From the NCBI GenBank assembly GCA_907165135.1, contig OU015570.1:2129929-2193928 (forward strand): DNA of 64,000 nt, written 5' to 3'. The position numbers and the translations under genes are program-made. Shown piece after piece: positions 389 through 32,752 of this stretch; position 1 is the first letter of the stretch, and each line of letters starts with the position of its first letter. The notes beneath the pieces are model-generated. The model was not told the origin of the DNA, did not search any database, and was given only the letters and a program-made list of their open reading frames with translations. The DNA is from Oikopleura dioica. Taxonomy: Eukaryota > Animalia > Chordata.

Positions 389-544
389 TAGTAAATTTAC
401 ACTTGATTTATTGAATGTTAATATCTATTGAACAGTTGGGTGGAGTCAGTGAAGTTATCATTTTCGTCGCTTAGTCTTCGTCGGTGAGCGTCCTGCTCAC
501 GAGCGGCTGCGCGCCATTTTTTGGATCGTAATTGTTCATTCTCT
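389..544 (-). repeat. 3' LTR of element 1 (partial, interrupted by a MITE)
   Basis: 156-bp near-identical direct repeat of 18427-18582. Minus-strand AGAAGGGGG polypurine tract lies just upstream (~549-557). Confidence 0.8.
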
Positions 545-1301
545 ATCCAACCCCCTTCTAGTTCTTTTGAAACACTGTTCTTGTGGCTTTAGTAATCGAT
601 TCTGGGTTTGTTGGATAGTTCGTTCGTTCAGCTTTGAAAATTTTGTTTGGTTTACCTTCTCCTCCCTCCAAAGAAAAATAAATTTAATAGTTTTGCAAGA
701 AAAATGTTTAGACTAAGTTTAAATAATACGCCAAGAATAATTATGAACAAATCAGAAAATACAAGTTTTCAATAAAAGTTTACAAGTGAAATAAGAAATT
801 GAGCGTAAATGAAGAGCAGTTAAAATTTATAAAAATACAGCAATGAAGTTTGCCTTTTAAAAAAAATTTTCAGTCTTATAAATTATACAGTAGATATTTT
901 TGCGACCATTTTGTCGATCTTTTTGTAGTTTTTGAATATTTTTTTGTTCACTAAAGTTTTCAATTTTGTAATTTTTATGTGGAAGGATTCCTCCTTTTTT
1001 GGAATATAAATTTCACAGAGCATTATATACATAAAAATAATTTCTTTACATAAAAAATGTCAGGGGCAGCTTAGTTATCGAGCACAATTTCAATAAAAAT
1101 GTGTTGTGGTTCACGAAAAAGCCGATCCTGATTCTATCTTGTTTTCATGTTTTTCTCGCGCAACGTATTTATGCGGAGCGCGCTGCCACTTTTACACACT
1201 TCGTTCTCGCCGCTCCTCGGAGCACTACAAAATATACCAGTTCTTTTTCCTACACAAGACCGTGTTCAGTTTTTGCAGCTTATTCGAGAGCCAACATAAA
1301 A

Positions 1302-1312
1302 TGGTACCAGGA
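1302..1312 (+). promoter_or_regulatory. PBS complementary to a tRNA-Leu(TAA)-type 3' end
   Basis: TGGTACCAGGA matches the reverse complement of ...UCCUGGUACCA, known from animal tRNA-Leu(UAA). Confidence 0.6.
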
Positions 1313-1608
1313 ACTTGCTAGAACCCTCGCCCTCAACTCCGTCTACTTAAATTTTTTATTGTTGGAATCTCGCCTATTCTTTGCTGGTAGAGAACGAACG
1401 TCACCTGGCCACCTCTGGACATCCCCGCCGTTATTTTCTTGCGCTCAACGTTGGCTACGACAACAACGACCCTACTTATTAGCTGGCGCATGAATCAAAC
1501 CGCGTACGCGCGTCACTCTTTAACCGTGCCGGTTTACCGGCCACACAAAGAGTGCCCACCAAAGGTAGTTTAACCCGCTGAGCCACTTACCTCGATTTTT
1601 CGCTCATC

Positions 1609-2444
1609 ATGACCGACCTGGAAATGCTGAAAAAATGGTCGGAGGAAGTCGAAGCAAAGCTAACCACCCTGACCGTTGGTTCCGCCCATCACACGACCAA
1701 CCGAGAACTGCTAACAGCCCTGAAAGCCAAAGTCATCGCCGCGCTAAAACCCGCTCCAGTCTCCAACGCCAAATCTTCCAACGGCGATCTCACTCGCGAT
1801 CAAATGGCATCTCTGCGTTCGTCCGAGTCCGCGCTCTCGACACTCGAGTTCACCGGCCGCCATTTTGATCGCACTACACAATTTCTCGTGCTTGTCGACA
1901 AGATATACGACACGTACATCGACTCCGACGCCACACTCGAAGCTACCTTCGTCAAGCAAGTTAAAATGCTGAAAATCTTGCTGAAAATCCCTACGCCCGA
2001 CTCAAGGCAACTACGACTTCTACTTCAACCTGGGCCGAGCTGAAAGCCTGGATTACCGCCAACTTTGATAGCGGTCTCACGTCTATTCAATTGCTCACCC
2101 GGGCGATCGAGACCGACTACAAGAAAAATTCCTGCTGGAAAGCCTTCGCCACCGACGTCGATTCTCGCATGTCCGCCGCTAAAGCCGCAGTTGTTGAGCA
2201 GATACGAGTCCGCAATGCCAAAATTAACGGCAAAAGCTGTGACCACGACGACAACGCGCCATCAATCGATGACATCTTTTCCTTCTTCAGCGCCGCCGTT
2301 GTGGCAGAGAGATTAAAATCACACGCCGGCCATATCCACTCACTTCTCGCGCAAGAATGGAAATCTATCAACAACGCCGCTGATCTCGCGTGTAAAGCTG
2401 AATACTTGATAGCTCAAACTTCATCCTACTCATCCGATTTTTGA
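1609..2444 (+). pseudogene. gag-like ORF, one frameshift
   Basis: ORFs 1609-2043 and 2091-2444 lie directly after the PBS/leader. Helical capsid-like composition, no zinc knuckle or pol seen. Confidence 0.55.
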
Positions 2445-3476
2445 CTATCTACAACACTCTCAATCTTCAAAATCCTTCTTCACTCAACCCTCTGCTCGTC
2501 ATCAGCTCGGGGGGTACGATGCATCTTTCGCTCGCTTCTCCTATCTCTCATCTCTACTCTGCGCTCGACTCAAGACGCACAAAACTCAGCTGATCGACTT
2601 CGCAGACTCTCTTCTTCAACTTCTACAACTACTACGTCAACTACTTCTACAACTACAATCTCAACTTCTAAGCCCAGTTTCCGTCCTGGCACACCACTCT
2701 CCTTCAAGCCCAGCACTCGCCCTGGCAACCAACTCAACTTCCATCAACTCTCACTAAGCCCAGCGCAAGCCCTGGCACTACTACACAAATCTACCAAGAC
2801 CAGCCCTAGTCCTGGCAATCCTCACCGCTCTTCAAACCCAGCTCTAGCCCTGGTACTGCTCGCTACTCTCCTTTCTACATCTTCAAGCCCAGCTACTGTC
2901 CTGGCAATCCTGACTTCTCCTTATCTCGCCGCTACCTGGCTTCTCTCTACAACTCCAAATCCAGCTCTCGCCCTGGTAAATCTACACTTTCAACTCATCT
3001 TTAGTTCTCTTCTTCTACAATTTCACCCTGATCGCCTACTTCTTCCCTTCCGAATCACCGTGCTCGCGCTCAAAACCTGCGCCGCGCGTCCAGTCAACTC
3101 TACTCATCACCCTAGAATCATCATCGTCTGGGGGGCTGTTGTGGTTCACGAAAAAGCCGATCCTGATTCTATCTTGTTTTCATGTTTTTCTCGCGCAACG
3201 GTATTTATGCGGAGTGCGCTGCCACTTTCACTCACTTCGTTCTCGCCCGCTCTACGGAGCTCTACCAAATATACCAGTTTTTCCCTACGCTAGAACCTTG
3301 TTCAGTTTTTGCAGCTTATTCGAGAGCCAACAAATGTACAAAAATAATTTTCTTTTTTCTCGGGAGGTGTCCTCCTCTTTTTGTTTTATATTACTTTTTT
3401 TGTTGGAGAATACAAAAATTCTCATCTTTTTATTTTATAATTTACAGCGTTTCTATTTTCCAACAAATCGGGGGTA

Positions 3477-4094
3477 GGAGAATGGCGTTCCAAAAATTAG
3501 GAACGGTTCCTAAATTTAGGAACGGTTCCTTAAATTAGGAACACCATTCTCCAAAAATTTCTTTATCTCATAAATGAGAAAAAGCCGAAAATTAGGAACC
3601 GTTCCTAAAAAAATTTTCTAGAGCCCCTATTTTCATGTTCATTTTACATTTTCTTTCCCTCAGAAATGAGCGAAAAACGATTCCGGTTGCCTACAAGTCA
3701 AAAATCTGTTTTACTCTAACCCTGTTTTGATGAGAATCATATAAAAAATGCTTTAAAAATCAAATAACTATTAAACCCTTACCTTTCTTAAAGAGAATTC
3801 AAGTTTCCTAAAAGATATTTTGCATTGAATCCATCTGCTTGCCGCCAAAAACGAAATATGCGCTCCGCGCCTGTTTTTAAGCAAATTCAAGAATTTGTTT
3901 GCTTTTCGAATGAGAAAAAAAGAGACGATTGCTTCCCCTAACCCTAACCTTACCCCTAACCCTAACCCAAATTTTAGGAACGGTTCCTAATTTTAGGAAC
4001 GCCATTCTCCGCTTTTTTGTTTAAGATCTTCAGCAACGGTTCCTAAAAAATTAGGAACGGTTCCTAAAAAAAAATTTTAGGAACGCCATTCTCT
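3477..4094. mobile_element. MITE with TIR GGAGAATGGCGTTCC and a doubled right end
   Basis: Left TIR at 3477, inverted ends at ~4010 and ~4094. About six AGGAACsGTTCCT palindromes and a short CCCTAA-like run at 3935-3968. Confidence 0.7.
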
Positions 4095-5790
4095 CATCCC
4101 CAACAAATTCGTCTCTTACATTTCTGTACTCATTTGACGAGGATATTTTATTTTTGCTTGATAGCTTTCTCGTTTGAGTCCAGAAAAGTAGGAGTTTCTT
4201 ATTAGCGCTTGGAAAATAGATGTGGTATTCTGTTGTTATTATCTGGAGCAAAAGTTCTTCAAGTTTATTTTTGCCAAGATGCAATAAATGGACCGTATCC
4301 GCTTTATCGAAGAAATGCTTGAAGTGTAAGGGAGAATATCCCTTACAATAGTGTCTGAGTGCAGAAAGCTGAGCTTATATGATTTTCCCTATGTTTGGTC
4401 GCCGGAGGGCGCTTATTGAGTGAAGATGTTAGGCAAGAGTCGCTCTTGCCCTTAGCAAACGCCTGTGATCATTTCTGGTTACTTCCGGTCACTTCCGGTT
4501 CACCTCTAAATCATTGCTATAAGTGTTCATCCATTCATTTAACTTACAAGAACATAACTGAGCTAATGCTCACTTGAAACAGCGCCACCTGGTGCATGCT
4601 CTCGCGCCCCATCTAGCGTCAGCTCTTGCGCCCCACCTAGTGGACACACAGGAATAGCTCTCTAGTGACCTCTAGTGGTGGCTCAGTTGCGCCACCTATG
4701 GTGAGCACAAAGCTTGAGATCTCATCCTGATTCATCAGTGACTGAGGATCGACTTCATTCGATGAAGGTCCTGGAACATTCTGGACACCCTTACTCACTA
4801 TGACTCACGATTACGAAGGATGACATCATTTGGAGAATCTACTCGAATATTCCATCACTGTTCTAAGAAGCTTGAAGATTCATCTATCCCGATCAAGGAG
4901 CTTCTCGACTGTTCTTATTTTCCCTTTTCTGTATTATATAAAGCGTGCACTTTGCTGTTAGTGGATTATTTTATTTCAGTAGAATAAAACCGACAAAAAC
5001 AACTTGACTCTCTTTTATCCAGCAGACACCAGCAGAACCCGAAAAAACCGACAGCAAGTGCAGCACCAACAACTAGGACTCATAGAGTACTAGTGGACTG
5101 GAGAGACCCCCCAGAGATTCTTCCCCTTTATACGAAGAGCTTTGGGTCCTTTTCGAAGGATGAAGAAATATTAGAGAATGTTATTTTTGGGTTATTTTTA
5201 TTTTTGATGAAATCGTTTAACATCTCGTTAAACTGGATTCGCCTTTTGTTTTCCGAATCGTTTCTCTTTAGCAATGAAATACAAATAATGTCTGCGTAAC
5301 TATAATTTTCTCGAATGTTATTTATCAAATCTATATATTTATTTAGAATTATTTGTAACGGGGCTCTAACTTTGGTTCTGGATAATAAATCGTTGGTTCC
5401 TACCATAAGAATGATTCGTCGGATTTTGAAGGGGTGCGGAAAGGTAGTCGTTTCGAATCTGTCGTTACAAATCCAGTATAGTGCTTCCTGGGTAGGCGCA
5501 TAATATACAGTCGACTGTTTCGAAATAAGGGAGGTTTCCTCCTAAAATTCAAATCAGAAAGTTAGAATGCGGCGAAAATTTAGCTAATTAATTTTTATTT
5601 CGTATTTAATAAAACTGATAAAAATGACGATTTAGGTTATCTTTTGTCATGAAGAATTTTACAAAAAATGAAAATTTGCCCAAAATTTTGTTGGTTCTTA
5701 CTTCAATGACGCAAATCGGAGATTGAATTCGGTTGAAAGTGGCTTTTCTTCCTTGATTGTCTGAGACAATGATTAGTGATATGACGTGAG
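4094..5790 (-). CDS. Spliced SGNH/GDSL-hydrolase-like accessory gene within element 1
   Basis: Predicted phase-0 introns 5542-5701 and 4318-5133 join LIIVSDNQGR (block I-like), IILMVGTND (block III) and FFDKADTVHL..G (block V DxxH) in frame. The 3' end runs into a MITE. The 5' start is uncertain. Confidence 0.65.
4352..5071 (+). mobile_element. Putative solo LTR inside the predicted SGNH intron
   Basis: TGT...ACA ends, imperfect TSD AATAG/ACTAG, TATA-like at ~4933 and AATAAA at ~4983 near the 3' end. Confidence 0.45.
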
Positions 5791-5948
5791 TGAATCAAAT
5801 TTACGCATTTCTCATGCATCCGTCAAAACAAGGACTGATAAGCCTCGGATTCTTTTCGCGCATATAAGCAGCTCCTTCTTTTCGAAAATCAGAAACCGTC
5901 ACAAAATAGTTTTTGATCGAGAAACTACTAAAAACAACGAAAATAAAG

Positions 5949-6266
5949 ATGTCCAACGAAGCTAATGCTCTCAGCGATCCAACCTTTTTAGCTGTCGTGC
6001 TCGGCTGTAAGTATATTAAGATGGATTGAATAAGTTTTTACTTCTTAATGATTAGATGAAAAATTTTGATGGTTTTAGTCTCTCTCGCTTTCTTCATTAT
6101 CATTTTGTTGGTAATCTACTGCGTGTACAAGGAATATAGACGTTCGCGAGCCAATTCTACTAGGGAAGACCTTGTTCCCTTAACTCCGGTCGAAAACGTT
6201 CCTCGTGCATCAAAAAGTTATCACTTGTCTCTTCCAATCAACATCAATCGAACTTCCAGAAACTGA
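5949..6266 (+). CDS. 81-aa single-pass membrane microprotein (2 exons), antisense to element 1
   Basis: ATG 5949, GT-AG intron 6007-6078. In-frame product MSNEANALSDPTFLAVVLGFSLAFFIIILLVIYCVYKEYRRSR...RN* has a TM helix followed by a basic cluster. Confidence 0.55.
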
Positions 6267-7499
6267 TTCTGTCAGTATTTCTTTCTACTGGATTAAAAAG
6301 TAAGTCTTTTCAATTACTCAATATTAACATGTTTTTAGAAATAGAAAATCAAGTAAAAACTACAAAATCTCCCGAAAAACTCATTTGGCGCTAGCATCGA
6401 TTGGCTGTAATTCTACTCTGATTTGTTCCCAAATAAATTCTGCTTTCGCGAAAAAGCGTCTCATTTTGTCCGAAATAATCTTTGGGAGGTCTCCTTCCGA
6501 AAATTTGATGAGTGGAATTAAGTGAAGCCTATTCGGTTTTGAGTTAAATTTGTGAAAAAGAATGATTTTAAGGCAAAATTTGATATTTTATCGCGGTTAT
6601 TTACTTCTAATTTATCTTGAAAAACAAAATCATCTGGGCTTTAATTTGAGAAATCGAGAAAAATGTCTTAGGGAGGACTCCTCCCAAGTCTTTTTAATTT
6701 TTTCAAAATAAACGACGCTTTACAGTATAAGTATAAACTATTTTTACAATTTACGATAAGATTAAAGTTTTGTCTTTTCAATTAATTTTCAAAGAAAAAT
6801 TGTCTAATCGGAAATATGATAAAGCTTAGAATTTTCAAAATGAATTCGATAATTTTTGACCAAATGGTTCTGACGCGAACAGCCGCAAGAGAAAGATTTT
6901 CACAGATTCGGCAATGCTCGACTTGTTTGATTACTTTCGATTCCTCTTTTGTTTTTTTCCTCGACTTACTGGGAGCCCACTGATTCACACTTTTGAAAAG
7001 ATCGGCCTCGTTTTCGAGAATTATTTCAACCAAAACCAGTTTTTGTGAGTGAAATATTTTCACGAAAACGTCGCCCAAGTTTGCTTCATAAGCCCTTCGA
7101 AGTGATTATAAATCATTGGTGAGCTCTCGTCTCACAGCTTTCGCAAATCTTCTGGCTTTAGTCCATTCATATTCATTTCGATCTCAGAACTTGTTTCCCT
7201 GCGCTAGTTTTGTTAAGATCATGGAACGTTTTAAATTATTAGTCGCAACCAGGGCTGGTAAATTAGCGCACTATTTTCTCTCGAAGAAAAAATTAGTGCA
7301 CTAATTTTTTAGAGACATTTTCGCGTCTTTCGCGCCTTTAGTGCACTAAAATGACACTAATTTTTCCTCTTGGGGAAATTAGTGACTTTTCGAGAGCTGA
7401 TCAGCACTAAAGACGCGAAAAAAGGCTCTTTTTCATCATCTAATGGGCTCTTCCCGGATGATAGTTTCATGGAAGACGATTTTTGTCAGGGAAGAATTT

Positions 7500-7800
7500 C
7501 TTCAAACTGAAACTGCTGGATATTTAAAAATCAATGCATCATAAATATTGGGGAATCCGAAAATTTACTGATGAGAATTCGCGACCACGGGCAAAAATCA
7601 AAAGATACAGCTGTATACGCACACACTCAGTCATGTGAGGTTTTTCAGACAGGATTTAATGAAAAGTATCAGCAAAATAACCCGAAGTCCCGGTTTGAAT
7701 ATCTCAAATCGAAATTTACCCTGCTGCATAAGAATCTATCGTATGACAAACGAAAACATGATTCTATTGTCAAAATTGGGTTCTGCCTTATCGAGCGCAA
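7500..7800 (+). pseudogene. 3' fragment of a second Penelope-like element (GIY-YIG half)
   Basis: IGESENLLMRIRDH...AVYAHTQSC...KFTLLHKNL aligns by eye with the endonuclease of the PLE at 26010. Confidence 0.6.
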
Positions 7801-9167
7801 AAGATTGGCTTTTTTGACTACAAGAGCAAGGTTATGTGGTTTTGATACAAACTACTGTTTTATCATTCTCCTGTAATATGCCGTGAGAAACTCGAGTCAT
7901 TGCCAGATGGATAGTAGGCTGTGTGACTTTTCCATTAAAGGAATTTCTTATTTTTTGAATCGTTTCTGCATTTCGTCCGCAGCCAAAGGCGTAAAGTTGG
8001 TCGCAAAAGTCGGAATGAATTTTTTTTAATTGTTTAAATTCAATTTCAAATATTTCGTTGGAGCTTCCTTTAATAATGTATCCTAATTATTGCGTTTTCT
8101 CCAAAACGAAGTCCAAATTTAACCTTTGGGACAATAATATCGCTTAGGTCTCCGAGTTGAGACATATCGCGGATGAATATTTCATCCATGGATTTCTCCT
8201 TAAGCTTGCAAAGCTCAAGGATGATTCCCACATGAATCATCCACAGTTCCCTATTGGCTGGGCTAACTCGCCGCTCTATATTCGGCCAGCGTTTTTCCAA
8301 TTGCCTAAAAGACCACTCTCCCATTTCAGAGTCTTATTCTTTTATGACTCTTGTTTTGGGTTTTAAATTCGATGCAAAAACAAAAGTCCGGTCTGACCGG
8401 ATTCGGGGTTTTGTCAAGATTCTCAAATAAGTGTCAAAGTAGTAAAAAGTCGAAAATTTTTGGGTAAAAACTGAGGTTGTTTATTAATCCTTACTTTTTG
8501 AAAATATTCGTCTCGGTTCTCTGTCTCTCGAAATGCGATCTGACGAAAGTGCTGAGATTTTTGCTGATTATAAAGGTTGCTCTGATCCTAGCTTTAAAGA
8601 TATTTCCGTTCCCATTGACGTAACCATTAAATTTATATGCTAATTGCCATTTTGTTTGAAGTGAAGAAATAATTGGTTCCCACGCTAACGACCCTAATTG
8701 GTTATAAAATTTATAGTCTGAGAAGGTTGCTTTACCGCATCTATTTCGGTACTACTTTGAAGTTTGAAATTCATTGGAATTTCTACGCATCGATTTTATA
8801 AGGAGGTCTCCTCCGTTACTCAAAAATTTGACGATTTATTTCACGGGAGGACTCCTCCCGAAATAAAAATTCGTGATTGGCTACGCTTTGTTTGTGGCGC
8901 AGTTCGCGGCGCACCAGAGTTCATCATCGTTTTGCTTCTGAAATAGCGAGCCTTGAATAAAATAATATCGAATAAAAAGATTGCGATCGAAAAATTTCCC
9001 TTGCGATTTTAAGGTTAAAGCTGAAAAACTTTCTTAGTCAAAATTTAATTTTACAGGAATTTTTCGTTGATTGGAAGGACTCTTCCGCAACCAAAGGTTC
9101 CATACTAGGCGTAAATTGATAGCGCATTGTAAGTCAGGATGATGGTAGAAAGCCGAAATTTGTATTT

Positions 9168-11920
9168 TTAGTGTGATCTTATTTTATTCTTTTTCCTTGA
9201 TCTTATTTTTAGTCCAAAAAACATACCAATTGTCTTAAGGAGACAAACTAGCAAGTTTTTTATTATCGTAAGTGATATGATTACTGAAATTATTAAAATT
9301 ATGAAAAACGAAACTGAATGATAAATCGTCGAGACTCCTTTAACATTTTCAACCTTTTTTATAAATTTTCCAATTTTGCCTGTACCTGGTAAAAATTCTA
9401 ATTCCGGTAAAAAGGTGTAATTTGTGTGGGAGCTAAAATTATAATAAACGTCAAAGTAAGAAGCGTAATAGTTTTTCGGAATAACTAGACTTTTTCTGTC
9501 ACATAAAATAAGGACGTCCGAGTTGGTGCTAAACGTTTTAGGCGGCAAAAGATGTGTGCCTTTTTCGAGAACTTTTGTTTTCATCAGGTCACTTTCTCCC
9601 GTAATAATCTTAGCACTGGTTTTTGTTGAAAGGAGGGCTCCTCCCTTTCCAATTTGGAAGCGGCAATCTTGTCTTACTGTTTTTTCTTCACAATTTAATA
9701 CCGTGGATCTGTTGCCAGAAATAAGGGATTCTACGCATTTAGCTTCTTCATCATCGTCTTTTAATAACTCTAGAGGGCAATCAAGAATATTTTCGGTCTT
9801 TTTGCATTCAGGCGCAATTTGAATGGAAGACTTTGACATAATTATATGGCCTTTTGGAATTTGTTTTTGATGGAAGTCATTTCCCACTACTTCGGCGCCT
9901 TGTAGAATTTCTAATTCATTGTGGAAATTATGCGAAACGACAATTGGCACTCGTAATTTGATTTTGATAATAAGACTAAAAGTTTCAAGTTCGTCCTTGA
10001 ATAATCCTTCTATCGAAATACGGTCTTTGCAAAATATTTTTAAGCAGTTCTTTGGGCTCATTTTCGGATTTAAGGCTTCGCAATGTCTAACAAATAATTC
10101 TTTTAGTCTAAAATCCATTTTCGAGATAAGTAAATTAAGGGTGTCCACATACTTATCTACCATATTTTCTGCAATTTGATCGTAAAATAAATGGACTCGA
10201 TTTCTATGGATTTCGCAAAAACTTGTCTCAAGCTTGAAAATTTCCCTTCCGTTAGCTATTTCTAGGTCTTTTATTTTTCGAATGTCATTTTCCGATAGAT
10301 CGACTAAAGAATTTCTTTTCTCCCCTCTGGACGTAACACCTTCGTACATTTTATGTAAGATATATCCTCACCCGGTCCCCGCAGCGGCTCCAGCAAGTGC
10401 AATACAGTTATTTATGGAATTTGTGGACATTTTTTGTCTCCTAGTTTTCTGAAAAATGTCCACAAATTTGATAAAGAGCCTCGAAAAAAATGTCCCAACG
10501 AACTTGTTTAAATTTTTTATAAGAAAGAAAATTTGATGATTTTTCTCAAAAAATAATGAGAAAAAGAATACAAGATTGAATCTAAAGACGTAAATCTAAA
10601 CAAAAATTAAGATTTTTGACGAAAAACAGTTCTTTGCAGATAAAATTGGCTTCAATTACGAAAGTAAGACCAAAATTTAGAAGTAAAAGATATCAATTGA
10701 GAAAAAATGTCCACAAATTTGATACCCTCTTTTTTTGGTATGTCCCAAGAAAACCCCTTATAATCTGAAAAATGTCCACAAATTTGATGTCCACAAATTC
10801 CATAAAAAACTGTACCTATCTGACGTCGTTTTCTCGAATTCAGAAACAATCTTGCCGATACGTTTGGTGGCGCAATTTGCTTGCCTTCCAATGTTTCCGT
10901 TATTTTGGCGCATCTTTCTTCGGTTGTATCAAATGAAACCACTAGAAATGATCACATAGTAATTGGTACGTTTTCTCCCTTAAGTGGGTCCGAGCATGTA
11001 ATGGCCAAAGAATTATAAATTGTTATTTTACAAAAATTTCCCATTAGGTTATTACTCTCCTCTCTTTTGATTTTCTCAAGATTATTTTCATCAACCATAA
11101 AGAGCGCAATTCTAATTTTAAAATTATCTTCCATAAAAGCTTGTCCTTCCGATGATTTGAAATATTTTAACTCGCTAGCGCCTATGCCAATATTAACTCC
11201 TATTTCTGTGATGACCCCCTTAAGTTCTATAAGAATTGCATTTGCACAAATAATGCATTCTTTCCAATCACCAAAAGGATTCAAAATATTTCCCCATAAC
11301 CAATTTTTTAAGGCCTCGTCCCATTTCAGGTTCACCTTCGGCGAAACCGTCAATTTCAGCTTATCCTGGAGCACGTTCACAAAACTTTCAGTAGGAATAA
11401 TTTCACCGTCGCCTTCAGAAAAAGTACTCTTAATTATGCCAAATATTTCATAATCGCTCACTTTTTTGCCAGGTAATAAAGTCCGATTTTTAACTGGATA
11501 ATGATGATTTTTATCGATAAAATTATTGTTCAACAATTTTAAATTCGAGTGAGACGATGGTCCTAGGAAATTTTCGAATTTCTGAATTACTGAATCTCGT
11601 TTTTCCAAATGGTTTTCAGCTAAATTTTCACAATAAACCTCTTGGCAGACATTCTCGTTTCCGATGCTCCCGCTTACCCTATCCATAATTTTATTCGCAA
11701 TAATTAAATTCAAATTTGGTCTGTGAGTATCATTTATACACATCAATTCTTGGCTTTTTGTTTCTAGTTTAGGAAATCCGAAATGAGCATTTAAATCTAC
11801 AACTTTTGCATCTAGTGTTACTAAAACTTCAGTATCTAAAATTGTCGTCAACGTGTTAGTATCATTATTGAAAAATGTTTGTCCATCTACTATTATAAGA
11901 AAAAGGTGAAAAAGCCTCAT
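9168..11920 (-). pseudogene. env: env-like class I fusion glycoprotein of element 1 (~780 codons once the MITE is removed)
   Basis: Signal peptide MRLFHLFLIIV, furin site RKRR followed by QIGIALAGAAAG, C-terminal TM and basic tail. One reading frame with two TGA stops (10952-54, 10368-70) and a MITE at 10405. Confidence 0.85.
10405..10812. mobile_element. Tc1/mariner-type MITE (408 bp) in the env fusion peptide
   Basis: TIR CAGTTwTTTATGGAATTTGTGGACAT, TA TSD, near-identical copy at 61566-61975. Confidence 0.92.
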
Positions 11921-14900
11921 TCTCGATAATATATTATTCTCCTCGGTCTAAGATTCTGTTCATATCCGGGGTTTTGAAATCTCGATGGCGTATTATTGGG
12001 TTCGATTCTGTTTTGTGAATTTTGGGTTGCTCTCTGGTGAATATTTGAAGACTGGTCGGGTTCGAAAGGATCTGTTTTTGGATCGAGTGGCACTGGGGCT
12101 GGCTTGTCGTTGATCATAAAAATTCCGTCGACGCTGACACGGACTGCGCGATTGCGCACAGCCTCTAACATGTTCTCAGTCATGAACAATTTGCGAATCA
12201 TTTTCTCATTCCTGATGCACCTGGTTTCATTAACCATATGTTCTATCTCTACGGCCCCGTTATTATTCCTTAAAACCAGATACGGCCCTGTACTGGCGTT
12301 CCCATGGCCGAGAGTTTTATTATTTACGACAATCACTACATCACCTTCCTTTATGGTGTCCTCGATAAGTATAGATTTTCTCTTTATTTCGCGCTTAAAA
12401 CAAATATAAATTTGTATCCCAAATTTCTCTCGCCTCCGCTTTCTGTTCCTCAGAAAAGTCTCCATAATTATTTTGAATCTCCTCTAAATGTTCTACTTGA
12501 ACAATAAGATTTTGTGGCTGTCCCGATAAAATTTCTGCCGGAACTTTTAAACCTAAATTTTGCTTTGGCTTCGAGTTGTAACTGTTGTGAGCTAGCTGTA
12601 GTCTCTCCGTATCATTCATGTTTAGCTCGTCAGCTAAACTTTGGCACGCTTCTAAATGTCTCCTAAAGATTTTATGCACCCTTACAACTGGGTTGGCAGT
12701 AGGATTGTATCCCGTTGGGTTTGAATGCCTTATCCCATACTTTTTAAGAAAAATGCGGAACTCGTCGCTCCTAAATTCGGGTCCTCCGTCACGTTAAATC
12801 GAGTTTCCCGGACCAAGTGAATATTTGAAAATTAAAATAGTCATCGCCTTAATGACTGATTTCGACGTTTTATCCAAAATTGGCATAATATCTAGATGTT
12901 CTGAGAATTCGTCTAAAAATGACATTCCAAATGGCGCCGTTTCCGATTTTTTATCTAAGACCAAAAGGTCCAAGCTAAATTTCTGAAAAGGAAAAATCGG
13001 CAATGTCATGTGTCTTATTGGCTGACTTCTGTGCGGCTTCTGCTTTAACGCGCAAAGATAACAGTTAGCACGCATTTCTCGCATCAGGTAAATTTTATTG
13101 TTAATGAAAATTCTATCAACTTCCAGTTTTTTTCGAAATCGCGGCTTCCGCGCTATGCCCGTAGGACATATGGAGAGTGATGAGTATTTCTTTCGCTTGT
13201 TTTTCCGGAATAACGTAGCAAAAGTGATTTTTTCTATGGTCAAATCTCATCAAAACTCCTCCTTCCCCTTCTTGAAATTCAGCAGGCCCGATATTCCAAA
13301 TGATTATCATTTAAGCGAAAAATTCCTTGACAAAAAGGGTCAGCGTCCTGCGCATTTTTCAATGCCTGTAAATCCAGAGTTATTTCAGACAAATGCCTGT
13401 GTTTGTAGTCCTGAAGAACTTCGAAATGGTTAAAATTTTCACTTGGGAGGACTCCTCCAACCCACTCTACTATCTCGCTTTGTTCAATTTTTCCGGAAGT
13501 TGATATTGCTCTGGATAGGCCATCGCAAATTTGAATTATTTCATCTTTAGCTGATGCATATCTAAGTTCTAGGTTTGGGTACTGAAAAAGTGTTAAAAGG
13601 GCTTTCCTGACTCGTGTCACTGGAAATTTTTTAAGCGCTTCACTTTCTTTATAGTTACAAATACTTTTGTGATCACAAATTACCGTTACGGGTACAGCCT
13701 CCGATAAAATATCCTTAAAATACTCCAAAGCTCTTTGAATCCCTTTAAGCTCGCGATTGCGACTCGATTCTAGCTTAAATTTTTCCTCAAAAACGCCTGA
13801 CTCAAATGCAATGGGCTTAAAGTCTTGGATTTCCGTTCTCCCACTTTTCCTATTCCAAAGACTGTTCCGAAACCTTCCAGGCTCGCATCAACCGCTAAAA
13901 CATAACTTTCCCCCTTACAAGGAATCGGATAAAACGTGAGATTTTCCTTGTTGATTTCGACTTTTAATTTTTCTACCGCTTCGTCAACTTCCTTGCTACC
14001 CTTAAAATCTTTATTCGAGCTTTCCTTTGCTAATGCACTTAGATAAAATTGGGCTCTTGGCAGGGATCTAGTGAAAAAGTTGCAGCTACCCATAAAATTC
14101 TGAATTTGCTTTTGAGTTTTTGGTGACTCCATTTTCAGAAGTCCTTCCATTTTATTCCTTAGAGGAGTGATTCCGACTGAATTAATCGAAAATCCCAAAA
14201 AGTTAACTTTGCGCTTAGCTATGTGCGTTTTCTTAATATCTAGAACTAAATTATTTTTCAGAATTATTGAAAGTAGCCAGCTTAGCGCCTGCTCGGTGCT
14301 ATCTTTACGATGGATGAGTAAAATATCGTCGATGTAAAGTTCGATTCTGAAAAATTTCGCTAGATTCTCTGGCAGAACCAATGTCTCAGCGATAAATTGC
14401 GAAAATACTGCTGGTGCAAGGCTTAGCCCTTGAGACATTTTTGCATATTGCTAAAGTTTATTTCGGCCACTGAAGGCTGTAAATTTCCGAATTTTCGGTT
14501 CTAGCGCAAGTGTGTTATATCCCGATTTTAAATCTACAGATGTAAATAAAATCCCTGACTCACTTTATTTCTTAAGTTCGTTTATGTGGCTAGCTATGGA
14601 ATAAAATAGATCTCGAATGGGTCGAATAGGCCGTTGTGGCACGTGTAAACACTCATTGAGCCAGGTTTAAAAATTTGTCACCATTCGCAATTTTGAATTC
14701 TTTTTTGGAATAAACATCGATGGGCTTGACCAACTAGAATTACTTTTCTCAATGGTTCCGTTTATTTCTAATCCCTTCAAGAACTCCAAAATTTTATTTT
14801 GATCCGCCGATGGATTTCGATAAGCAGATCTTTGCTCGGGCTGTCGAGCCGATCTCGCCAATCTCGCCGATCTCGCCAACTAGAGCGTTTCTATCGATAA

Positions 14901-15356
14901 TAATTAGCCCCTCACCCTTATTAAAACCCGTTAAAATTCCCGTATGTAAATTGAGACCTTCGAAAACAACATTTTCCGCTCGTAGGTTTTGCACTGGATC
15001 CGGAAGCAATTCCATTTTATCCTTTTTATGTCGATCGAGCTTCTGGAATTTTAAATTTATCTTTATCTGAAAACGCGACCGAGGTTGAATGACTGTATCT
15101 TCTTGCGCGATCAAGTCTTTCGTAATGTTTTTCAAATTTAGAAGCGAAGAAATATGGACTGGCTCAGTCAATCGGGCTTCTACGGAAAATGAGTGGATTG
15201 AAATCCCTCTGACTCGGTTCGGCAATTTCTTGAAATTAATATTTAAAAATTGAATAACATTGTACCCGAGAATAATTCTATAACTTATTTTTGGCGTTAT
15301 AAAAAGCTCACACATCGGAACACTTCCTCCCTTTTCAAATTTTAGATTGAGCACTG

Positions 15357-16331
15357 ATAATTTCAAAAAAATTTTTGCGGGTCTGAAAATCGTAAAAATT
15401 CTGAAAGTGCAGTTTTCTTCAGCTTGTTGAGACGAGTCGAATGGTGGGTCAAACTCTTGATAACTCCAAGGATTGTCCGGTTAACCGGCTTGTTACCGGA
15501 AAATACGTTTCCGCTCGCCGTTTTTGTTCTAGAAATGCTAGGATGATGAATGAACCCGGAAACTGATCCTTATGGTCAGTTCGGTAGACGGCGGGTTCCA
15601 TTCTTTGTGAAGAATGATTCTTTTTTCAAAGAATGGTTCTTTTTTGCGAAGAATCATTCTTTTTTAAGAATACATGAAAGGACGCATAAAAGACACTCAA
15701 AAGTTCAGAAACAAAATCCTGTCTATGCAAATAACTCAGGAGCGAGTGTGCGCTTCGCGCCAGTTATCAGGGAAACTCCTAAGTGTTTGGCATCTTAGAA
15801 TTTTGATATATCCGAAAAACCTTTTTTTACCTCATTTTCTCTAGAATATTGAGAAAAAGAATGATTCTTTAAAAAGAATGGAACCCGCCGTCACCCGGTC
15901 AGTTCTACTGTGGGCAAAAAGATATTGGTCAAATATATAGCGAAACTCTTTTTAACGATAAAAATTCTAAATTTTGTATGTATTTTGTTGTTGCTGCACC
16001 TTCCTAATTTTCGGTCCCATTTTCATAAGAAAATAGAATTTTGGTGATAAGCATCTTATGGTTAGAGATATGATTCTCATTTTTTCACCCACAGAAGAAC
16101 TAACTTCAACGACCAGTTTCCCGCTTTTTTTGTCATTCTAGCATTTCTAGAACAAAAACGGCGACCGGAAATGTACTTTCCGGGAAATTGCCGGCTAACC
16201 GGTTAATCATTGGAGTCATCAAAAGTTTGACCCATTGACCCGTTGATTCGACTCGTCTCGACGAGCTCAAGAAAACTGCACTTTCAGATTTTTTATGATT
16301 TCCGGACCCGCAAAAATTTTTTTGAAATTAT
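15357..16331. mobile_element. Foldback element (~190-bp imperfect arms) in the protease of element 1
   Basis: Apparent 5-bp TSD CACTG. Removing it restores in-frame EKTV|LNLKF. Confidence 0.8.
15583..15896. mobile_element. MULE-type MITE nested in the foldback
   Basis: TIR GG..GACGGCGGGTTCCATTCTTT, 9-bp TSD GGTCAGTTC. Confidence 0.75.
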
Positions 16332-16822
16332 CACTGTTTTCTCGGAGAGCTCGGATATAACGTGACCATCACCCCCTTTTAACGTTAGATTTTCTGCTTT
16401 CTTCCTTCTTAGATTTAATTCGGTTACTAGACTCTCTTCTATCAGGCTTACTGACGCTCCAGTATCCAAAAGACACCATATTTTATTGTTATGAAAGTTA
16501 TCTATTGTTATCTGTATTAATGGAAAACTTTTATACACGTTGATCTTTCTGGGAGGATACCTCCCCAAAAATTTCAATAGCGAGGGTTCGTTTTTAAAGA
16601 GCAGTTATTTCCGAAAATTTCATTTATTTCCTTTTTACAAAGATATATACGCGGTTTTGTTACGATTTTCAAAAATAACAATGTAAAATAGTCACTAAAA
16701 CAAGACAAAACAAAACAGGAGGAGTCCTCCTAAAAATTACATTTTATCCTAAACTAAGGAGGAGTCCTCCTAAAATTATACTTTACCCTAAACTAAGAAG
16801 GTGTCCTCCTAAAAAGTCCCCA

Positions 16823-18164
16823 TTATTGGCTATTTTGTTTAAGTGGACACTGTCTGCTAAAGTGACCGCTCTGCTTGCAGTAATAACAAACGTAGCTCCC
16901 CTGGTTTGGGCAGTTTCTCAAAATATGACCGGATGACCCACAACCCCAGCAGATTCCCTCTTGATTTCCGATTGGTGGTTTGTTTTGTCGAGGGGCTGGC
17001 CTTGGGCCTTGTTGCTGAAAATTTTGTGGTGCCCAAGCTGGGTTCGCTCTTGGTGCGTAAAAGTTATTTCTTTGTTGAGGTTTAAAGCCGCCGCCGACTT
17101 GGTGTCTTGGGTTATAATTATGATAATTACCCGGGCTCTGAGAACTTTCTGGGTTCTGAAAATTACTTCCTTGACCTTTGAAGTTCTGCTTTCCATAGTT
17201 ATTTTTGCCATAATTTTTGTAGCCATTATTTTTATAGGTCTTGCTTTGATCTTTTTGAGTCTTCTGCTCGTTTTTCTGTACAATTTTCACATTGTTGAGT
17301 GACGAAAGTTTCTTTTGACTTAAAAAATTCTCAGAGAATCTTACTTATTCTTCTCCTTCTATATTCATGCTAATAACTTGAAAAACTGCGTCACTGGGGC
17401 AAATTTTCTTTCGAAAGTGCATGTCTGCGAATTTGGTTTGTCCCTTATTATTTGGAAACATTTTAGATGCACTTGCCATTTGGACAAGTCTCCTGTAAAA
17501 ACTTTGTGGTGTGTCCCTGGCTGGGTTAAATGTGAGCATTTCGATTTCACGCAAAACAAGCTTATCGGGCTTTCTAGCCACTTCTTCAACAATTTTCTTG
17601 AAAGCTGCAATATTAAGTTTTTCCCTTGGGTCTCTAACTCCCTCAATTTATCAGTGAGCCCTTCCGAAATGGTTTTTGTATCAATTGCAGCCACGATGTA
17701 GCCGATAAATTGTTTATCTGAAATTTTCTTACTTCCATTTTGCAATTTAAGGTTAAAGAGCTGATTTTCAACCCATGTTGGCAACCCATCCCGATCATCT
17801 TTATCAGTAAATCTTTTCGGTAATTTGTAATATCTTCGCCCGCAACAACGTGTCTGTTGTACAAGAAATTAAGGGCGTTTCCGATGTTATTTTCGGTAGT
17901 TGTTATGTGTTTTGGATCGAAAAGTGGAATATTCTCTACTATTCCGGGGATTTCCGAGCAAAATTGTTCGTACGTTTTTGTTTCCAATTTATCGAGATCA
18001 CTTGGGATTTGTTTAAGGTATGGCATTGCGAAAACGATATACAAATTTTTGTATGGCTCTTCCTCTCTTTTACTGAGTAAATAAAGTGCCATTGCTATGA
18101 CGTGAGGTTCGCTTCTATTTTTCTTCCCATGCCTTTTTAAGTATTCTTTTTTTTTATGACTCAA
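16823..18164 (-). pseudogene. gag: gag of element 1 (frameshifted pieces)
   Basis: ORFs 17643-18164, 17345-17581 and 16823-17290. Two CX2CX4HX4C knuckles (CWGCGSSGHILRNC, CYYCKQSGHFSRQC). Confidence 0.85.
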
Positions 18165-18281
18165 TCGCGTTATTACCCTTTGAAAAACTCATCCAAGCTA
18201 ATAATTGTTCCATTCTAACTAACTGTATATCATCAAGTGACAACCTGTGCATTTTATACGAGGGGGGTCTCATCTTAGTTT

Positions 18282-18296: not shown

Positions 18297-18582
18297 AGAG
18301 ATTAAACAGGTTATCCCTGATAGACTATACTGGCAAAGACTGCTTTCCTAATGACTGGTATGGGCCGATGGCTAACAGGTGTCTGACTTGCTGATATACT
18401 TGCTAATTGATAAGAATGAATCCACCTAGTAAATTTACACTTGATTTATTTAATGTTAATATCTCTTGAACAGTTGGGTGGAGTCAGTGATGTTATCATT
18501 TTCGTCGCTTAGTCTTCGTCGGTGAGCGTCCTGCTCACGAGCGCCTGCGCGCCATTTTTTGGATCGTAATTGTTCATTCTCT
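18297..18582 (-). repeat. 5' LTR of element 1
   Basis: Terminal inverted AGAGA/TCTCT. PBS-like motif 3 nt from its inner end. Right part matches 389-544. Inner boundary is inferred. Confidence 0.7.
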
Positions 18583-20281: not shown

Positions 20282-20887
20282 TATATGGATACCTCGATTT
20301 TTTCGGGGCAATGCATTGAAATCATCGGTATCTATAGTATTATCTATAGTTAAATGCTTTAAATTCAATTTAAAAGGAATCCACAAGGCCAAGGCAGATT
20401 CTGCAAATGCAAATTTTTCTCTTGGGTCTGTTCTTACATATGATTACAAATTAGTGGTTTGGGCATCTAATTTACTCGAGATATTTGGGAGAGAATGCAA
20501 ATTTTTACCACAAAAGAATGAGCCAAGGACTAAAGTTGATTGAAAAAAATATAGTTGACGCGTGTCAAATCCTATAAAAGTTTACTGAACAAAAATTAAA
20601 ATCCTTTTTTTTTCATAAAAAGTCTGAAAATAAATCTTCTGATATCAAAATCTATCGAATTTGATTTTTTGAAAGTTTTTCATCCCAAAAAAGTCTCAAC
20701 TTTTGCAAAATCGACCGTTACTTCTGACAAAATAGTCAGATCGCGCAAATTTTTGGCTGAGATAGGTTTTAAGACACAGCGAATAAGATGTAATGAGATT
20801 CATTCGAGCAAAGAAATTTTTTTTGGCCGACCCTACTATAGACTATTGTTAGGCATAACGCACAAAAAAATCAACTTTTTCCCTGTA

Positions 20888-21652
20888 CCGTGGTTTTCCA
20901 TTTTAAGAGCGTTTTTTAGATGACAGGGTTTGCTCAAAACGCTCTTAAATTGGAAATTTTCCTATCGATATAGGATGACAGTGGTTATTTTCATTTTTCA
21001 GGGAATTTCGAAAGTATGAAACAGAAAAGATCTAGAAGCAAAAGTATTTGTATATCAAGATGAGAACGTGAGTGATTTTTTCAGGATTTTCCTCGAGCGT
21101 TTTTTCTTAATCTGATCTCTTTCATTCTTCAAAATGTCAGGAGAAGAAAAGAAAAACACATGTCTTTGGCTTAGAAGAAAAAATATGCGCAGATTCTGGT
21201 GAAGGCTCAAAAAGAAAGGATGGGAGAAAGACTGTCATGGAGATCTAATAGATAATCCGAAGGAAAATGATGGGGAAGACATGCCTCAGTCACTGAGGCT
21301 CAGGGTACATTTTCTAGCCTTTGTAGGAATAGGTAAATTAAATATCTAGGAATCAGATTAAAAGCAAAAGAGCTCCGACCATGATGGTCCGTCGGCGATG
21401 GAGATTGAAGAAGAACCTCAAGTTCAAATGACAGAAGGAGCCGACACTGCCAAACCATTGACTTTAAAATGGCCGGAAAAGCAGTCAGAGATTACACGTT
21501 TTAGTTAATGATTTATTTGAGTCTAAAAATTTTTTGATTGCATAAAAATCTTCAAAAACGCTCTTAAATTGGAATTTTCGCAGATAACATAATTTGCAAA
21601 ATGTTGGCGAAAACGCTCTTACATTGGGCGCTCTTAAAATGGAAAACCACGG
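20888..21652. mobile_element. Tc1/pogo-type non-autonomous element (765 bp)
   Basis: TIR CCGTGGTTTTCCATTTTAAGAGCG, TA TSD. Carries a decayed MSGEEKKKHMSLA*KKKYAQILVK segment. Confidence 0.85.
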
Positions 21653-25682: not shown

Positions 25683-25740
25683 CTCAAGCAGTTTAGCTGT
25701 TAACTCTCAGGCTGACAAAGAATTAATATCATTATTTATT

Positions 25741-28565
25741 TACATTTCATTTATTTAGCAGAAGCTTTTCGCCATTACGGCTTCTTCAGTGCTACAGAGA
25801 AATAGTTGGAAAATCAGAAACATAAAAAAAGCTGTTACCTTAAGTGATGCAAAGACAGAACTGATTGGAAAATCGAAAACAACTACCACAATCACTGGTG
25901 TTCTAGAGATTTTTCAAAAAGAAAAACAACAATAAGCGCCGAAATGTTGACAATGAGACAGGGGCAACCTTTTTCCGCGCGTAAAAGCCCCTGTCTCGAT
26001 ATAAAATCTTCAAACAAAACTTATACTCTCATGATGGACTTGAATATTGAGATCAGGCCTATCGAGAACAATATGGACTGCCTCTAATTTCTTCCTTTCT
26101 CTGAGATCTAAGTTACGCTCAAGGATTTTAAATCTTGATTGAAAAAAACTTTTTGGGTCAAGCCCAGATTCATTCATTTCCTTCTGGTACCTTTCGCATT
26201 CGATTATATGCAAGTACGGTTTTCCCCTGTGTGAAGGGGTAAAATGTTGATTGATTCTAGCTCTGACATTAATCGTCTCACCGATGTAACTGGAAGGACA
26301 ACAACAATTAAATTTATAGATCGCATTAACGGCCGAAAGAGGGTCTTTCTCACTATAAAGCTTTGATATTATCGTGTTCCTTAGATTAAGTGTTTTATGA
26401 GAAATTCTTAGATTAAAATCCGGGGACACTGATTTGACGAGTTTCTTTAAATCGCTTGCGACTTTTGACACTCTTTCACTCGTATAAGGTATTGGTAAAC
26501 AATGATTTCTATCAGGATTATCAGATATTTCCTCTCCCCAATTTATCTTATTTTCTGAGTCATTTGTCCCATTTGCATGGGCTTTTGCGGAATCAATAGT
26601 TTTTGATGTGTATCCAAGAGTTTCAAATTTTTTCGAAAGATCATTAAAAGCTTTTTCAAGCTGTTCTGGCTCTGAATTTCGCATTTTGGCCCTAATAAAT
26701 TCTGATTTTAAAATTCCGATTTTCATATTTTTCGGCGCTACTGCCGTTTTAGAATCCATAGTGACAGATTCTTTTGGAGCACTTTTAATTTCAAGTTTGT
26801 TACTTTTTTGACTTTCATAGATGCAAAAATCAAGAAATTTTAGTTCTTTATTTTTGGGCAAATCTAGCTCATAGATAATCGATGGATGAAAATTTTTGAA
26901 TCTTTCTGTGATTATATGTTGTGATCCCTTTGGAGCAAAAATGAGACAATCGTCACAGTATCTAAAATAATTCAGAATAAGTCCTTCAGACTTCATTTTT
27001 TCAATTTCTTTATTTTCTATTCGATGTAAAAAATAATTGGCCAGAATTGGACTTGTGATATCTCCCATCGAAAGTCCTTTTGACTGTCTAAAATAATTTC
27101 CATTTACTTCAACAGCTGTAAAATGGGTAAGTGTTTTTGTAAGCATGATTTTAAGAAGATGCTTCGGTATTGGTGGTAAAAGTTTACCGTCAGAATCACG
27201 ATATCTTGGGAGCATTTTTACAGCGCGATTGCGCACATAAATTTCATCAAGACAAAAATCAATAAGAGTTTTTGTGCAAACTGATGGAAATAATTTTTTT
27301 TACATCTAATGAAAAAACTTCTATTTGATCATTCGGAAAAGATTTGGATTTAAACCACTTAGCAAAATCTTGGCTTGATTGTATGCCATTCCCTGTAGGA
27401 AACTTTTCAAAAATTGACATAAAAAATTTTTTTGATAGATTTGTTCCTATTGAATTTTGTTGATTAACGATAGGGCGAATTGGAAAATCTTCTCCAAAAT
27501 TTTCTTTGTGCGTTTTAAAAAGAGCGTATGATGTCTTTAATTGTGCGAGTGGTTGCATTTGTATACGGAAACTGTGTTTGTTAATCGAAGGGTATTTTGA
27601 CTGAAAATCACGAATAATTTTGACTGAATTATCATTTGAAAAACATTTTGAGAGAGACTCATGTATCAAAATAGCGCGTCCTTTGAGGTGAAATCGAGAA
27701 ATTGGATTAATGCCGGCTTTTTCCAAATGTTTGTTCCATTTGGAAAGGAATGAATCAAAACTACCCATAAGTTTTAAAGAATGCGGTTTCCCGCCATAGG
27801 GAAATCGGGGCCCACGTGTTAATATTGTTTCTTCTGATTGTGGAAGTGTTATCGAGGTGCAATTAACAATGGTAAATTTAGAAGGTTCAGTTTTTGAGAA
27901 TTTACGAAGTTTTTCTAATTTAGCATTTCTTGCACGATCACGTGAACGTTCAAGATGGGTAACTCGAGAAATAATAGAGTTTTTAAGTTCAGTAATGACA
28001 GAAAAAGAAAAATTGTTTCTAGAACATATTTGTGCCAATTGTTTTTCGAAAAGCGTATTTACCATGAGAAGATGATCTTCAGCGGATTTGATCTTTTCGT
28101 CCAGTAGTCGACGTCGTTCTTTCAGAATTTTTTTCTTTGTTCCATCTCGTGTACTTTAAAACAGCAGCTGGTATATACGTGCATCTTGGAAGCAGGTTTT
28201 CATCTTTGCATTCAGTTAAGAATAGCAGGTGTTTCTGGTTACGATGTACTTTCGTGAATCGTTGATCCAAATATTTCTTTGTTCGTCGGTCAATGGTCAT
28301 TATCGTTTCTTTAGTTGCCCCTGTCTCATTGTCAACATTTCGGCGCTTATTGTTGTTTTTCTTTTGAAAAATCTCTAGAACACCAGTGATTGTGGTAGTT
28401 GTTTTCGATTTTCCAATCAGTTCTGTCTTTGCATCACTTAAGGTAACAGCTTTTTTTATGTTTCTGATTTTCCAACTATTTCTCTGTAGCACTGAAGAAG
28501 CCGTAATGGCGAAAAGCTTCTGCTAAATAAATGAAATGTAATTGAACTCTCGTCAACTAAAGAAA
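25741..28565 (-). mobile_element. Penelope-like element with a 228-bp inverted terminal repeat
   Basis: 25741-25968 is the reverse complement of 28313-28540. Candidate 11-bp TSD CATTATTTATT at 25730 and 28566. Confidence 0.88.
26010..28492 (-). pseudogene. PLE reverse transcriptase + GIY-YIG endonuclease (frameshifted)
   Basis: KTHK..PIRPIV, SLDVKK, GLSMGDITSPILAN, RYCDD, then AIYKFNC..YIGET..RINQH. Three ORF pieces. The region before KTHK looks internally shortened. Confidence 0.92.
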
Positions 28566-28717: not shown

Positions 28718-29660
28718 GGGATCCCCCCTGATTTCTGAGCTTACGTAGGAAGCTGGTTTTGGGCGCATTAGAAAGCCCGCTTCGAAAGGAGCAAATTCTG
28801 GTAGAATCAGCTTGCCAGCAAAACATTCGCTTAGATGAAATTAAAAAACATCATTTAAGGCAAAATTTTTCAAAAAAATTTTATTGCTGCATTTGAAAGA
28901 GTAAAAAATTCTGAGTCAAATGAACTACTTCCGGCTCTATAAATTTACAAAATGACGTCATTATGAGTCATTCTGCTCAAAAACTTTTGGGCCGATTTTG
29001 AAGGGGTTTTCGATGGATTTTTTCGGAGTTCTTAGGCTCATGAAAATCGCCATCGAAAATTGAGGTGGGGTTTTGAAGCATTTTGAGAAATATTAAGGGA
29101 ACCACCCTCAATTATCGGATAATCAGCATTATCGGATAATTGAATAAAAAAATTCTAGTTGTAAAACTTTTTGAAACCATTTTTAACGTTATTTGAGTGT
29201 TAGAATGCTCTCTAGCGCCAACAACTGGCCAGAAATTCTAGTGCGGTTATTATATTCGTAATCTTCACATTCTAAGCTTTCGAAAGAGCCCTTGGTTGTG
29301 TTATTTGGATGACAATGAAAAATCGAAAAAATTGCGATTTTCACGCTTAGTACAATTAATATGCATTTTCATGAACTTTGGGAGCCAAAATTTTGGGGAT
29401 GCATTTATGTAAAGGGGTACTATGATATATCAAAATGATCCTCAGAATACGAGGAATATAATCATAGGCGATAATGACCGGTGCCAAAGTTTTGAAAAAT
29501 CGGGGGGGGGGTGATCCCTAAAGCGCCAACAAATGGCCGAAAATTCTAGTGCAGTTATTATATCCGTATTCGAAACTTTTCAATCTTTCAAAAATCCCCT
29601 TATTTGTCCTCTTTTGATAACGACAAAAAATTGAAAAAAATTGCGATTTTCGTGCTAAGT
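28718..29660. mobile_element. Cluster of truncated TTAA-GGG (Kolobok-like) MITE pieces
   Basis: TTAA|GGGATCCCC at 28718, TTAA|GGGAACC at 29097. Internal homology to 41150-41470 and 60276-60410. Confidence 0.65.
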
Positions 29661-29664
29661 GCAT

Positions 29665-32120: not shown

Positions 32121-32752
32121 CAAATAAATCATTAACTAAAACGTGTAATCTCTGACTGCTTTTTCGGCCATTTTAAAGTCAATGGTTTGGCAGTGTCGGC
32201 TCCTTCTGTCATTTGAACTTGAGGTTCTTCTTCAATCTCCATCGCCGACGGACCATCATGGTCGGAGCTCTTCTGCTTTTAATCTGATTCCTAGATATTT
32301 AATTTACCTATTCCTACAAAGGCTAGAAAATGTACCCTGAGCCTCAGTGACTGAGGCATGTCTTCCCCATCATTTTCCTTCGGATTATCTATTAGATCTC
32401 CATGACAGTCTTTCTCCCATCCTTTCTTTTTGAGCCTTCACCAGAATCTGCGCATATTTTTTCTTCTAAGCCAAAGACATGTGTTTTTCTTTTCTTCTCC
32501 TGACATTTTGAAGAATGAAAGAGATCAGATTAAGAAAAAACGCTCGAGGAAAATCCTGAAAAAATCACTCACGTTCTCATCTTGATATACAAATACTTTT
32601 GCTTCTAGATCTTTTCTGTTTCATACTTTCGAAATTCCCTGAAAAATGAAAATAACCACTGTCATCCTATATCGATAGGAAAATTTCCAATTTAAGAGCG
32701 TTTTGAGCAAACCCTGTCATCTAAAAAACGCTCTTAAAATGGAAAACCACGG
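32121..32752 (-). mobile_element. One-ended inverted copy of the 20888 element
   Basis: Reverse complement of 20888-21519 with very few mismatches. Ends CCACGG|TA. Confidence 0.9.

Follow-up and report, generated by a model that had tools for sequence, protein, structure and literature searches.

The stretch analysed here (the window) comprises 64,000 nucleotides of the Oikopleura dioica genome (contig OU015570.1 of assembly GCA_907165135.1, positions 2,129,929 to 2,193,928), and contains between positions 389 and 18582, on the minus strand, a decayed env-bearing gypsy-type long terminal repeat (LTR) element whose 3' region carries, as judged by sequence similarity, the remains of a gene of the SGNH hydrolase family. 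We favour, on balance, the view that this SGNH gene and at least one more gene were working accessory genes of the active ancestor of this element. Every gene of the present copy (gag, pol, env and SGNH) is broken, and in the form given by the window the copy yields nothing functional. The genes and LTRs of the element described below all lie on the minus strand.

The element is delimited by two direct repeats of 156 bases, a 5' LTR at 18427-18582 and a 3' LTR at 389-544, which are identical at 152 of the 156 bases (four differences), and a purine tract precedes the 3' copy; the initial annotation was thus right to take 389-544 for an LTR of this element. As in Ty3/gypsy elements, gag is followed by protease, reverse transcriptase (RT), RNase H and integrase, in that order. 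The remains of gag (16823-18188) come in several pieces with two terminal CCHC knuckles (Pfam zf-CCHC, E 6e-11), and those of pol (11917-16604), which are full of stops and frame changes, match Asp_protease_2 (1.5e-5), RVT_1 (2.5e-10), RT_RNaseH (3.9e-6) and, below the cut-off, the integrase family rve (0.017). No clean TGG start of a tRNA primer site is seen after the 5' LTR, and a repeat insert directly abuts the 3' LTR. Six nested inserts account for 5592 bases, leaving a net element of 12,602 bases (~12.6 kb). The env stop at 9168 lies 8623 bases from the 3' LTR, or 4421 once four nested inserts are removed, which agrees with the ~8.6 kb, about half of it free of nested transposable elements, that had been noted before.

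The third open reading frame (ORF) of the element, an env-like gene of ~780 codons at 9168-11920, begins in overlap with the pol stop, and carries one stop in each half. Its anatomy is that of errantivirus-like elements, with a furin-type site (RKRR at 10834), a small hydrophobic, Ala/Gly-rich peptide resembling a fusion peptide (10400) and a C-terminal membrane segment (Kyte-Doolittle hydropathy, KD, 2.8). An insert with TA-flanked inverted ends sits just past the RKRR site (10403-10812). We compared the window with DNA contigs from four of six sequencing runs, for which 27 records and 15 of 49 joints were listed, and all four runs join 10402 to 10813 across this insert.

The SGNH remains are spread over two main pieces. 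The core (5134-5542) holds block II (CAYPG, 5500) and then block III (VGTND, 5403), separated by a stop and a break in frame near 5467-5439, while the C-terminal piece (4111-4320) holds block V (DTVH, 4299) and stays open up to the next insert; the block II glycine, the block III asparagine and the block V Asp-x-x-His of SGNH hydrolases are therefore all present, across two frames and on either side of an insert. Upstream of the core lies a possible intron stretch (5542-5701, 24% G+C, whose donor and acceptor words fit the consensus); it is preceded by a frame (5702-6037) that contains the block-I-like word SDNQGR (5764-5747) and two stops, has no serine at the nucleophile position, gives no match in Pfam and is not notably poor in stops (p 0.10). 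The piece 5131-5541 scores 22.6 bits against Pfam GDSL_2; when the block II frame is added, with one X at the break, the score rises to 29.4 bits and the start of the match moves from profile position 62 to 37. A full-library HMMER search returned three matches: a multi-GDSL protein, a member of the cluster of the O. dioica protein CBY09137.1, and a repeat protein that we judged spurious. With CBY09137.1 as query, tblastn aligned residues 64-164 to 5439-5134 (28% over 102 residues, E 8e-11 within the window), whereas residues 42-60 fall on 5503-5447, where the alignment uses another frame and runs through a stop; overall identity to this protein is 28-29%. DTVH is the best ungapped match to the block V of the relative (score 20, versus 9 for the next site), and the spacing from the block II glycine to the block III asparagine is 31, versus 32 in the closest relative. 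The assignment to SGNH hydrolases made in the initial annotation is thereby upheld, with a GDSL_2 score below the cut-off, as is its placement of SDNQGR, VGTND and DTVH. A protein search with the core gave no match among 11 candidates. In metagenome contigs, three loci matched just 19 residues around block III and were set aside; the one of the three that was inspected holds a bacterial-type GDSL gene.

Contigs nearly identical to the window (0-6 substitutions) carry 3 and 12 letters more than it across 5451-5916, and in three runs such contigs carry two letters more across 6447-6985. The window may thus hold small deletions or assembly errors in both intervals.

Two observations tie the 3' region to the rest of the element. 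The first is a palindrome, GGAGG-N3-CCTCC, that occurs 13 times with at most one mismatch between 982 and 16809 (starts at 16809, 16770, 16730, 16564, 13458, 9644, 8858, 8814, 6684, 6497, 5542, 3375 and 994). All 13 copies lie in the 18194-base element, with none in the 5592 bases of nested inserts and none in the 45806 bases outside, whereas 300 shuffles gave a mean of 0.14 and a maximum of 2. The copies range from the gag-pol junction, which has four, through pol, env and the 3' region to 450 bases before the 3' LTR, with pairs before and after an ORF of no recognised family that lies between env and SGNH, and one copy inside the SGNH region. The element probably uses this recurrent palindrome as a signal in cis, in the form of an RNA hairpin or a DNA site, possibly for packaging or export or as a promoter signal; folding of ten palindrome regions gave z values from -2.8 to +0.4, so that the hairpin is not uniformly strong, and no match to the motif was found in the literature searched.

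The second observation comes from sister DNA. Two of the four runs, both from one study, contain a deletion form in which 5174 is joined to 10018, a cut of 4.8 kb that begins inside SGNH and ends inside env. In one of them, run X3, this joint has the same depth (367.8) as the joints over a solo LTR in the SGNH gene and over the insert at 3470-4109, and the piece between two of those joints measures 41 bases. Because of this shared depth and short piece, the three joints likely represent one contig of an independent copy, which likely had env and the 3' end of SGNH on one molecule before those inserts arrived. Since the palindrome is specific to the element and the sister form joins env to the SGNH 3' end, we conclude that the 3' region belongs to the element. 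Diverged contigs (~89% alike) also cover parts of it, namely 6447-6985 (61 differences in 539 positions) and 9059-9400 (41 in 342); no diverged contig over the SGNH core is among the 27 records listed. The high depth of the 5174/10018 form in one run might reflect an amplified non-autonomous derivative; we rejected, however, the use of contig depth as copy number.

SGNH is not the only candidate gene behind env. Between the two lies a decayed accessory ORF of ~340 codons with a hydrophobic C-terminus (8333-6782), in which one frame class has three stops over 263 codons and another has none over a further 87; given a spacer stop rate of 0.06 per codon, the three stops in 263 correspond to a binomial probability of 7e-5, with bounds chosen after looking. 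Profile and sequence searches returned no family match for it, and the ESM Atlas no usable one. An insert within it (7247-7757) is bridged in two of the four DNA runs (7246 joined to 7758). A further decayed frame, at 8340-9167, is possible and weak, with six stops in 276 codons (shuffle p 0.0035, bounds again chosen after looking). All of these extra frames are stop-poor and on the sense strand.

If the SGNH gene and its neighbour did work in the active ancestor, the esterase would have been a soluble, basic protein (the core has 18 K/R versus 10 D/E), made from a subgenomic RNA through an internal promoter or a single splice. Either route would be open in an Oikopleura host because the Tor elements of this animal use both, with env RNAs that are spliced from GA donors or started at internal promoters (Henriet et al., 2015, PMC4402516). 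By analogy, the protein may have worked like the esterase of ZfL2-1 ORF1p, through binding of acidic phospholipids with slow turnover, and such lipid binding would help particles of Gag and RNA to dock and bud at membranes bearing Env.

Several points weigh against this proposal, which as a whole rests on one decayed copy and on contig joints. The name env was given from anatomy only, because no profile or sequence search (Pfam and others) gave a match, including to F-type or gB-type fusogens; the C-terminal half matched none of 2603 candidates, the N-terminal half had no usable match in the ESM Atlas, and the structure model (predicted local distance difference test, pLDDT, 39) was too poor for a structural search. 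For SGNH, the 29.4 bits against GDSL_2 stay under the cut-off of 32.9, and the catalytic serine of block I is lacking in both candidate words. One is SDNQGR (5764), which shares its genomic frame with block II; the other, SDLNFR (5558), stands in a third frame at the 3' end of 5542-5701, 64 bases before the block II glycine, near the 21-residue spacing of the relative. A single-sequence model of the core reached a pLDDT of 51.5, and although SGNH proteins rank 1, 2, 3 and 5 in Foldseek, the best E is 0.013; a wider structural search (VIA-align) did not discriminate. Codons rich in A+T may account for part of the K/R excess. In the sister deletion form, most of env and of SGNH is missing, together with the ORF between them, and no other joint listed for the 3' region has a deeper contig, a hint that spread perhaps did not need these genes in cis, depth not being copy number. 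No intact sister gene was obtained. Finally, in the four of six raw RNA runs that were mapped (59, 56, 56 and 4% of reads used), gag, pol, env and the 3' genes showed no RNA beyond traces, a weak negative in that the samples may lack the element.

The main competing explanation, which we regard as rather unlikely, is that a host SGNH gene fragment, perhaps with an intron of its own, was trapped once behind env and was carried as inert cargo. The closest relative does cluster with CBY09137.1 of O. dioica itself, and short members of that cluster diverge after residue 54 or start internally, which suggests that the gene has introns; the 160-base A+T-rich stretch with its consensus splice words would fit such an origin, as reverse transcription makes it difficult for an element to retain an intron on its sense strand, and the deletion form dropped most of SGNH. 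An identity of just 28-29% nevertheless argues against a recent capture from CBY09137.1, and two more points speak against trapped cargo: the palindrome of the element is present within the SGNH region as well as between the extra frames, and diverged sister contigs carry part of the 3' region. It is improbable, in turn, that SGNH and the ORFs of no known family make up an element of their own, be it non-LTR, Penelope-like or a DNA transposon, that sits within the 3' untranslated region. Non-LTR and Penelope-like elements often carry SGNH domains (PMC3905857), and nested inserts abound in the window; yet no termini or RT of such an element are seen, none of the 15 joints listed takes the region out as a clean unit (the single large joint has its ends within env and within SGNH), and the palindrome is common to the 3' region and gag-pol-env.

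The initial annotation had proposed that two introns, at 5542-5701 and 4318-5133, are removed from a multiply spliced RNA to join SDNQGR, GTND and DTVH in frame, yielding an accessory esterase or a catalytically dead binding module. That a doubly spliced RNA gives such a dead, in-frame SGNH module today we now consider very improbable. GT and AG are indeed present at 5701/5542 and 5133/4318, both joins are phase 0, and the block I word does not occur in 90796 codons outside the element (the pattern having been written after seeing the word); moreover, given the 3 and 12 extra letters in near-identical contigs, some frame breaks may be assembly errors. The second "intron" is, however, a solo LTR that landed within the coding sequence (4321-5133, plus strand; 808 bases with a TG start, inverted ends and a target duplication of 4-5 bases). 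It is not an intron: DNA contigs join across it, 4320 to 5134, in three of the four runs (two studies), and sister DNA thus exists without it; as a repeat it is deeply covered in the DNA contigs. The stretch 5542-5701 is a possible, unproven intron: its ends conform to GT/AG and to the consensus, but joining in phase 0 at 5541 leads to a frame without block II, since CAYPG (5500) lies in another frame that meets a stop at 5467, so that it is out of register with block II as the window reads. Its donor and acceptor words are uncommon (19 and 31 in the 12.6 kb sense strand) and show no sense-strand excess (19 vs 19 donors, 31 vs 32 acceptors). The acceptor coincides with a copy of the palindrome, and the same T-rich run precedes four of the 13 palindromes; it may therefore be a by-product of that motif. 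Near-identical contigs of two runs span the stretch uninterrupted, and none of the 15 DNA joints listed skips it. At the RNA level, no junction at 5541/5702 or 4317/5134, as the model predicts, was found among the 14 joints listed in the four runs; depth over the SGNH region is zero, bar a trace that a single run shows in a single bin, and is otherwise confined to nested repeats, mostly less than 95% alike and continuing into other sequence. Nor does the missing serine point to a dead binding module in a copy whose gag, pol and env are broken too; we therefore rejected SDN as evidence of a dead enzyme.

Receptor destruction by a virion-surface esterase, as in viral haemagglutinin-esterases, is highly unlikely even though SGNH adjoins env and the upstream frame has a hydrophobic stretch (KD 1.8), as no ATG precedes that stretch, core and tail have no anchor (KD maximum 0.59), a single cysteine and no room for a lectin domain between the blocks, and no haemagglutinin-esterase is among the structural matches.

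The remaining nested inserts of the element comprise one in pol with inverted ends (15352-16331), across which contigs of all four DNA runs join 15351 to 16332, and two in the 3' region: a 2.2 kb LTR element on the plus strand (1098-3335), with ~200-base LTRs, gag-like frames and a low-complexity repeat but no pol, and a repeat insert (3470-4109), bridged in two of the four runs (3469 to 4110), whose RNA reads come from other copies. Elsewhere in the window, we observed a Penelope-like RT with a weak GIY-YIG match, flanked by inverted repeats of ~190-250 bases (25735-28546), a second gypsy-type pol on the plus strand with protease, RT, RNase H and an integrase zinc domain (43376-46563), and a tandem array, built from 57-base units, in which long open frames occur (29604-31875). 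A perfect inverted repeat of 634 bases occurs at 20886-21519 and 32121-32754, 10.6 kb apart; a SAP-domain frame (E 3e-8) is found on the plus strand at 37015-37743, and two long frames (474 and 211 codons) that lack a significant Pfam match on the minus strand at 57915-59947. The broader searches returned little: two distant matches and no Tor element for the RT against longer proteins, no viral contig for RT, env or SGNH, nothing relevant from PHROGs, NCBIfam, PDB sequences, Rfam or tRNA scans, and none of 10 window proteins in an exact look-up.

Compared with known systems, the gag-pol-env layout, the short LTRs and the furin-type site and C-terminal membrane segment of Env recall the Tor elements and the F-type errantiviruses of appendicularians (PMC4402516, PMC13524379), which are set beside the present element by layout and motifs. 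In contrast to Tor3b and Tor4b, no F-X-G tripeptide stands beside the RKRR site, and N-[L/V]-G is not found, just N-I-G; Tor4b also has a gap between pol and env, where here the env start overlaps the pol stop. At 12.6 kb net, our element is longer than the 9.0-10.0 kb of those appendicularian env elements, three of six, for which PMC13524379 gives LTR coordinates. The word esterase is absent from the main text of both papers, and SGNH and GDSL from that of PMC13524379. Additional ORFs can lie downstream of env (PMC6431247), and an SGNH gene has been described in a Helitron, together with an unlinked Oikopleura relative (PMC4021074). The O. dioica protein CBY09137.1 aligns with our SGNH region in blocks II, III and V, but has an intact GDS block I and a long Arg/Ser-rich tail after the SGNH domain, and is likely encoded by a multi-exon gene. 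Viral haemagglutinin-esterases are marked by an inserted lectin domain and by a membrane anchor that follows the esterase; neither is found here. The esterase of ZfL2-1 ORF1p, a slow hydrolase with affinity for acidic phospholipids (Schneider et al., 2013, PMC3905857; PDB 4c1b), is likewise a compact SGNH domain in a retroelement; it belongs, however, to an ORF1p that lies upstream of pol, and the element is of the non-LTR type; the structural match to 4c1b (Z 4.8) was not above background.

The closest parallel is offered by the Vesta LTR retrotransposons of bdelloid rotifers, gypsy-type elements without env in which a GDSL/SGNH ORF3 lies 3' of pol, and for which a membrane role is proposed, with activity not shown (Rodriguez et al., 2017, PMC5408684). 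The initial annotation had presented SGNH blocks as not known to it from LTR/env elements; such ORFs are published in LTR elements, although there the esterase, with its catalytic residues intact, replaces env, whereas here it follows an env-like gene, with another ORF in between and in a decayed copy. No element with both env and SGNH was found in the literature searched, which left out most subscription papers and repeat databases, so that the present one would be a new arrangement of known parts in a fossil copy. We propose, more tentatively than the accessory role itself and with close to even confidence, that it represents an env-bearing gypsy lineage, probably appendicularian, whose conserved post-env accessory block (the SGNH esterase plus an orphan ORF or two) and repeated hairpin signal make it an invertebrate-grade counterpart of complex retroviruses, with a lipid-binding esterase alongside a fusogen. 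The esterase ORFs of published LTR elements, which replace env, leave open whether they substitute for it; if our reading is true, the esterase of an element that has both does something that env does not, and such a lineage would provide a chordate-relative system for the lipid hypothesis of retroelement esterases.

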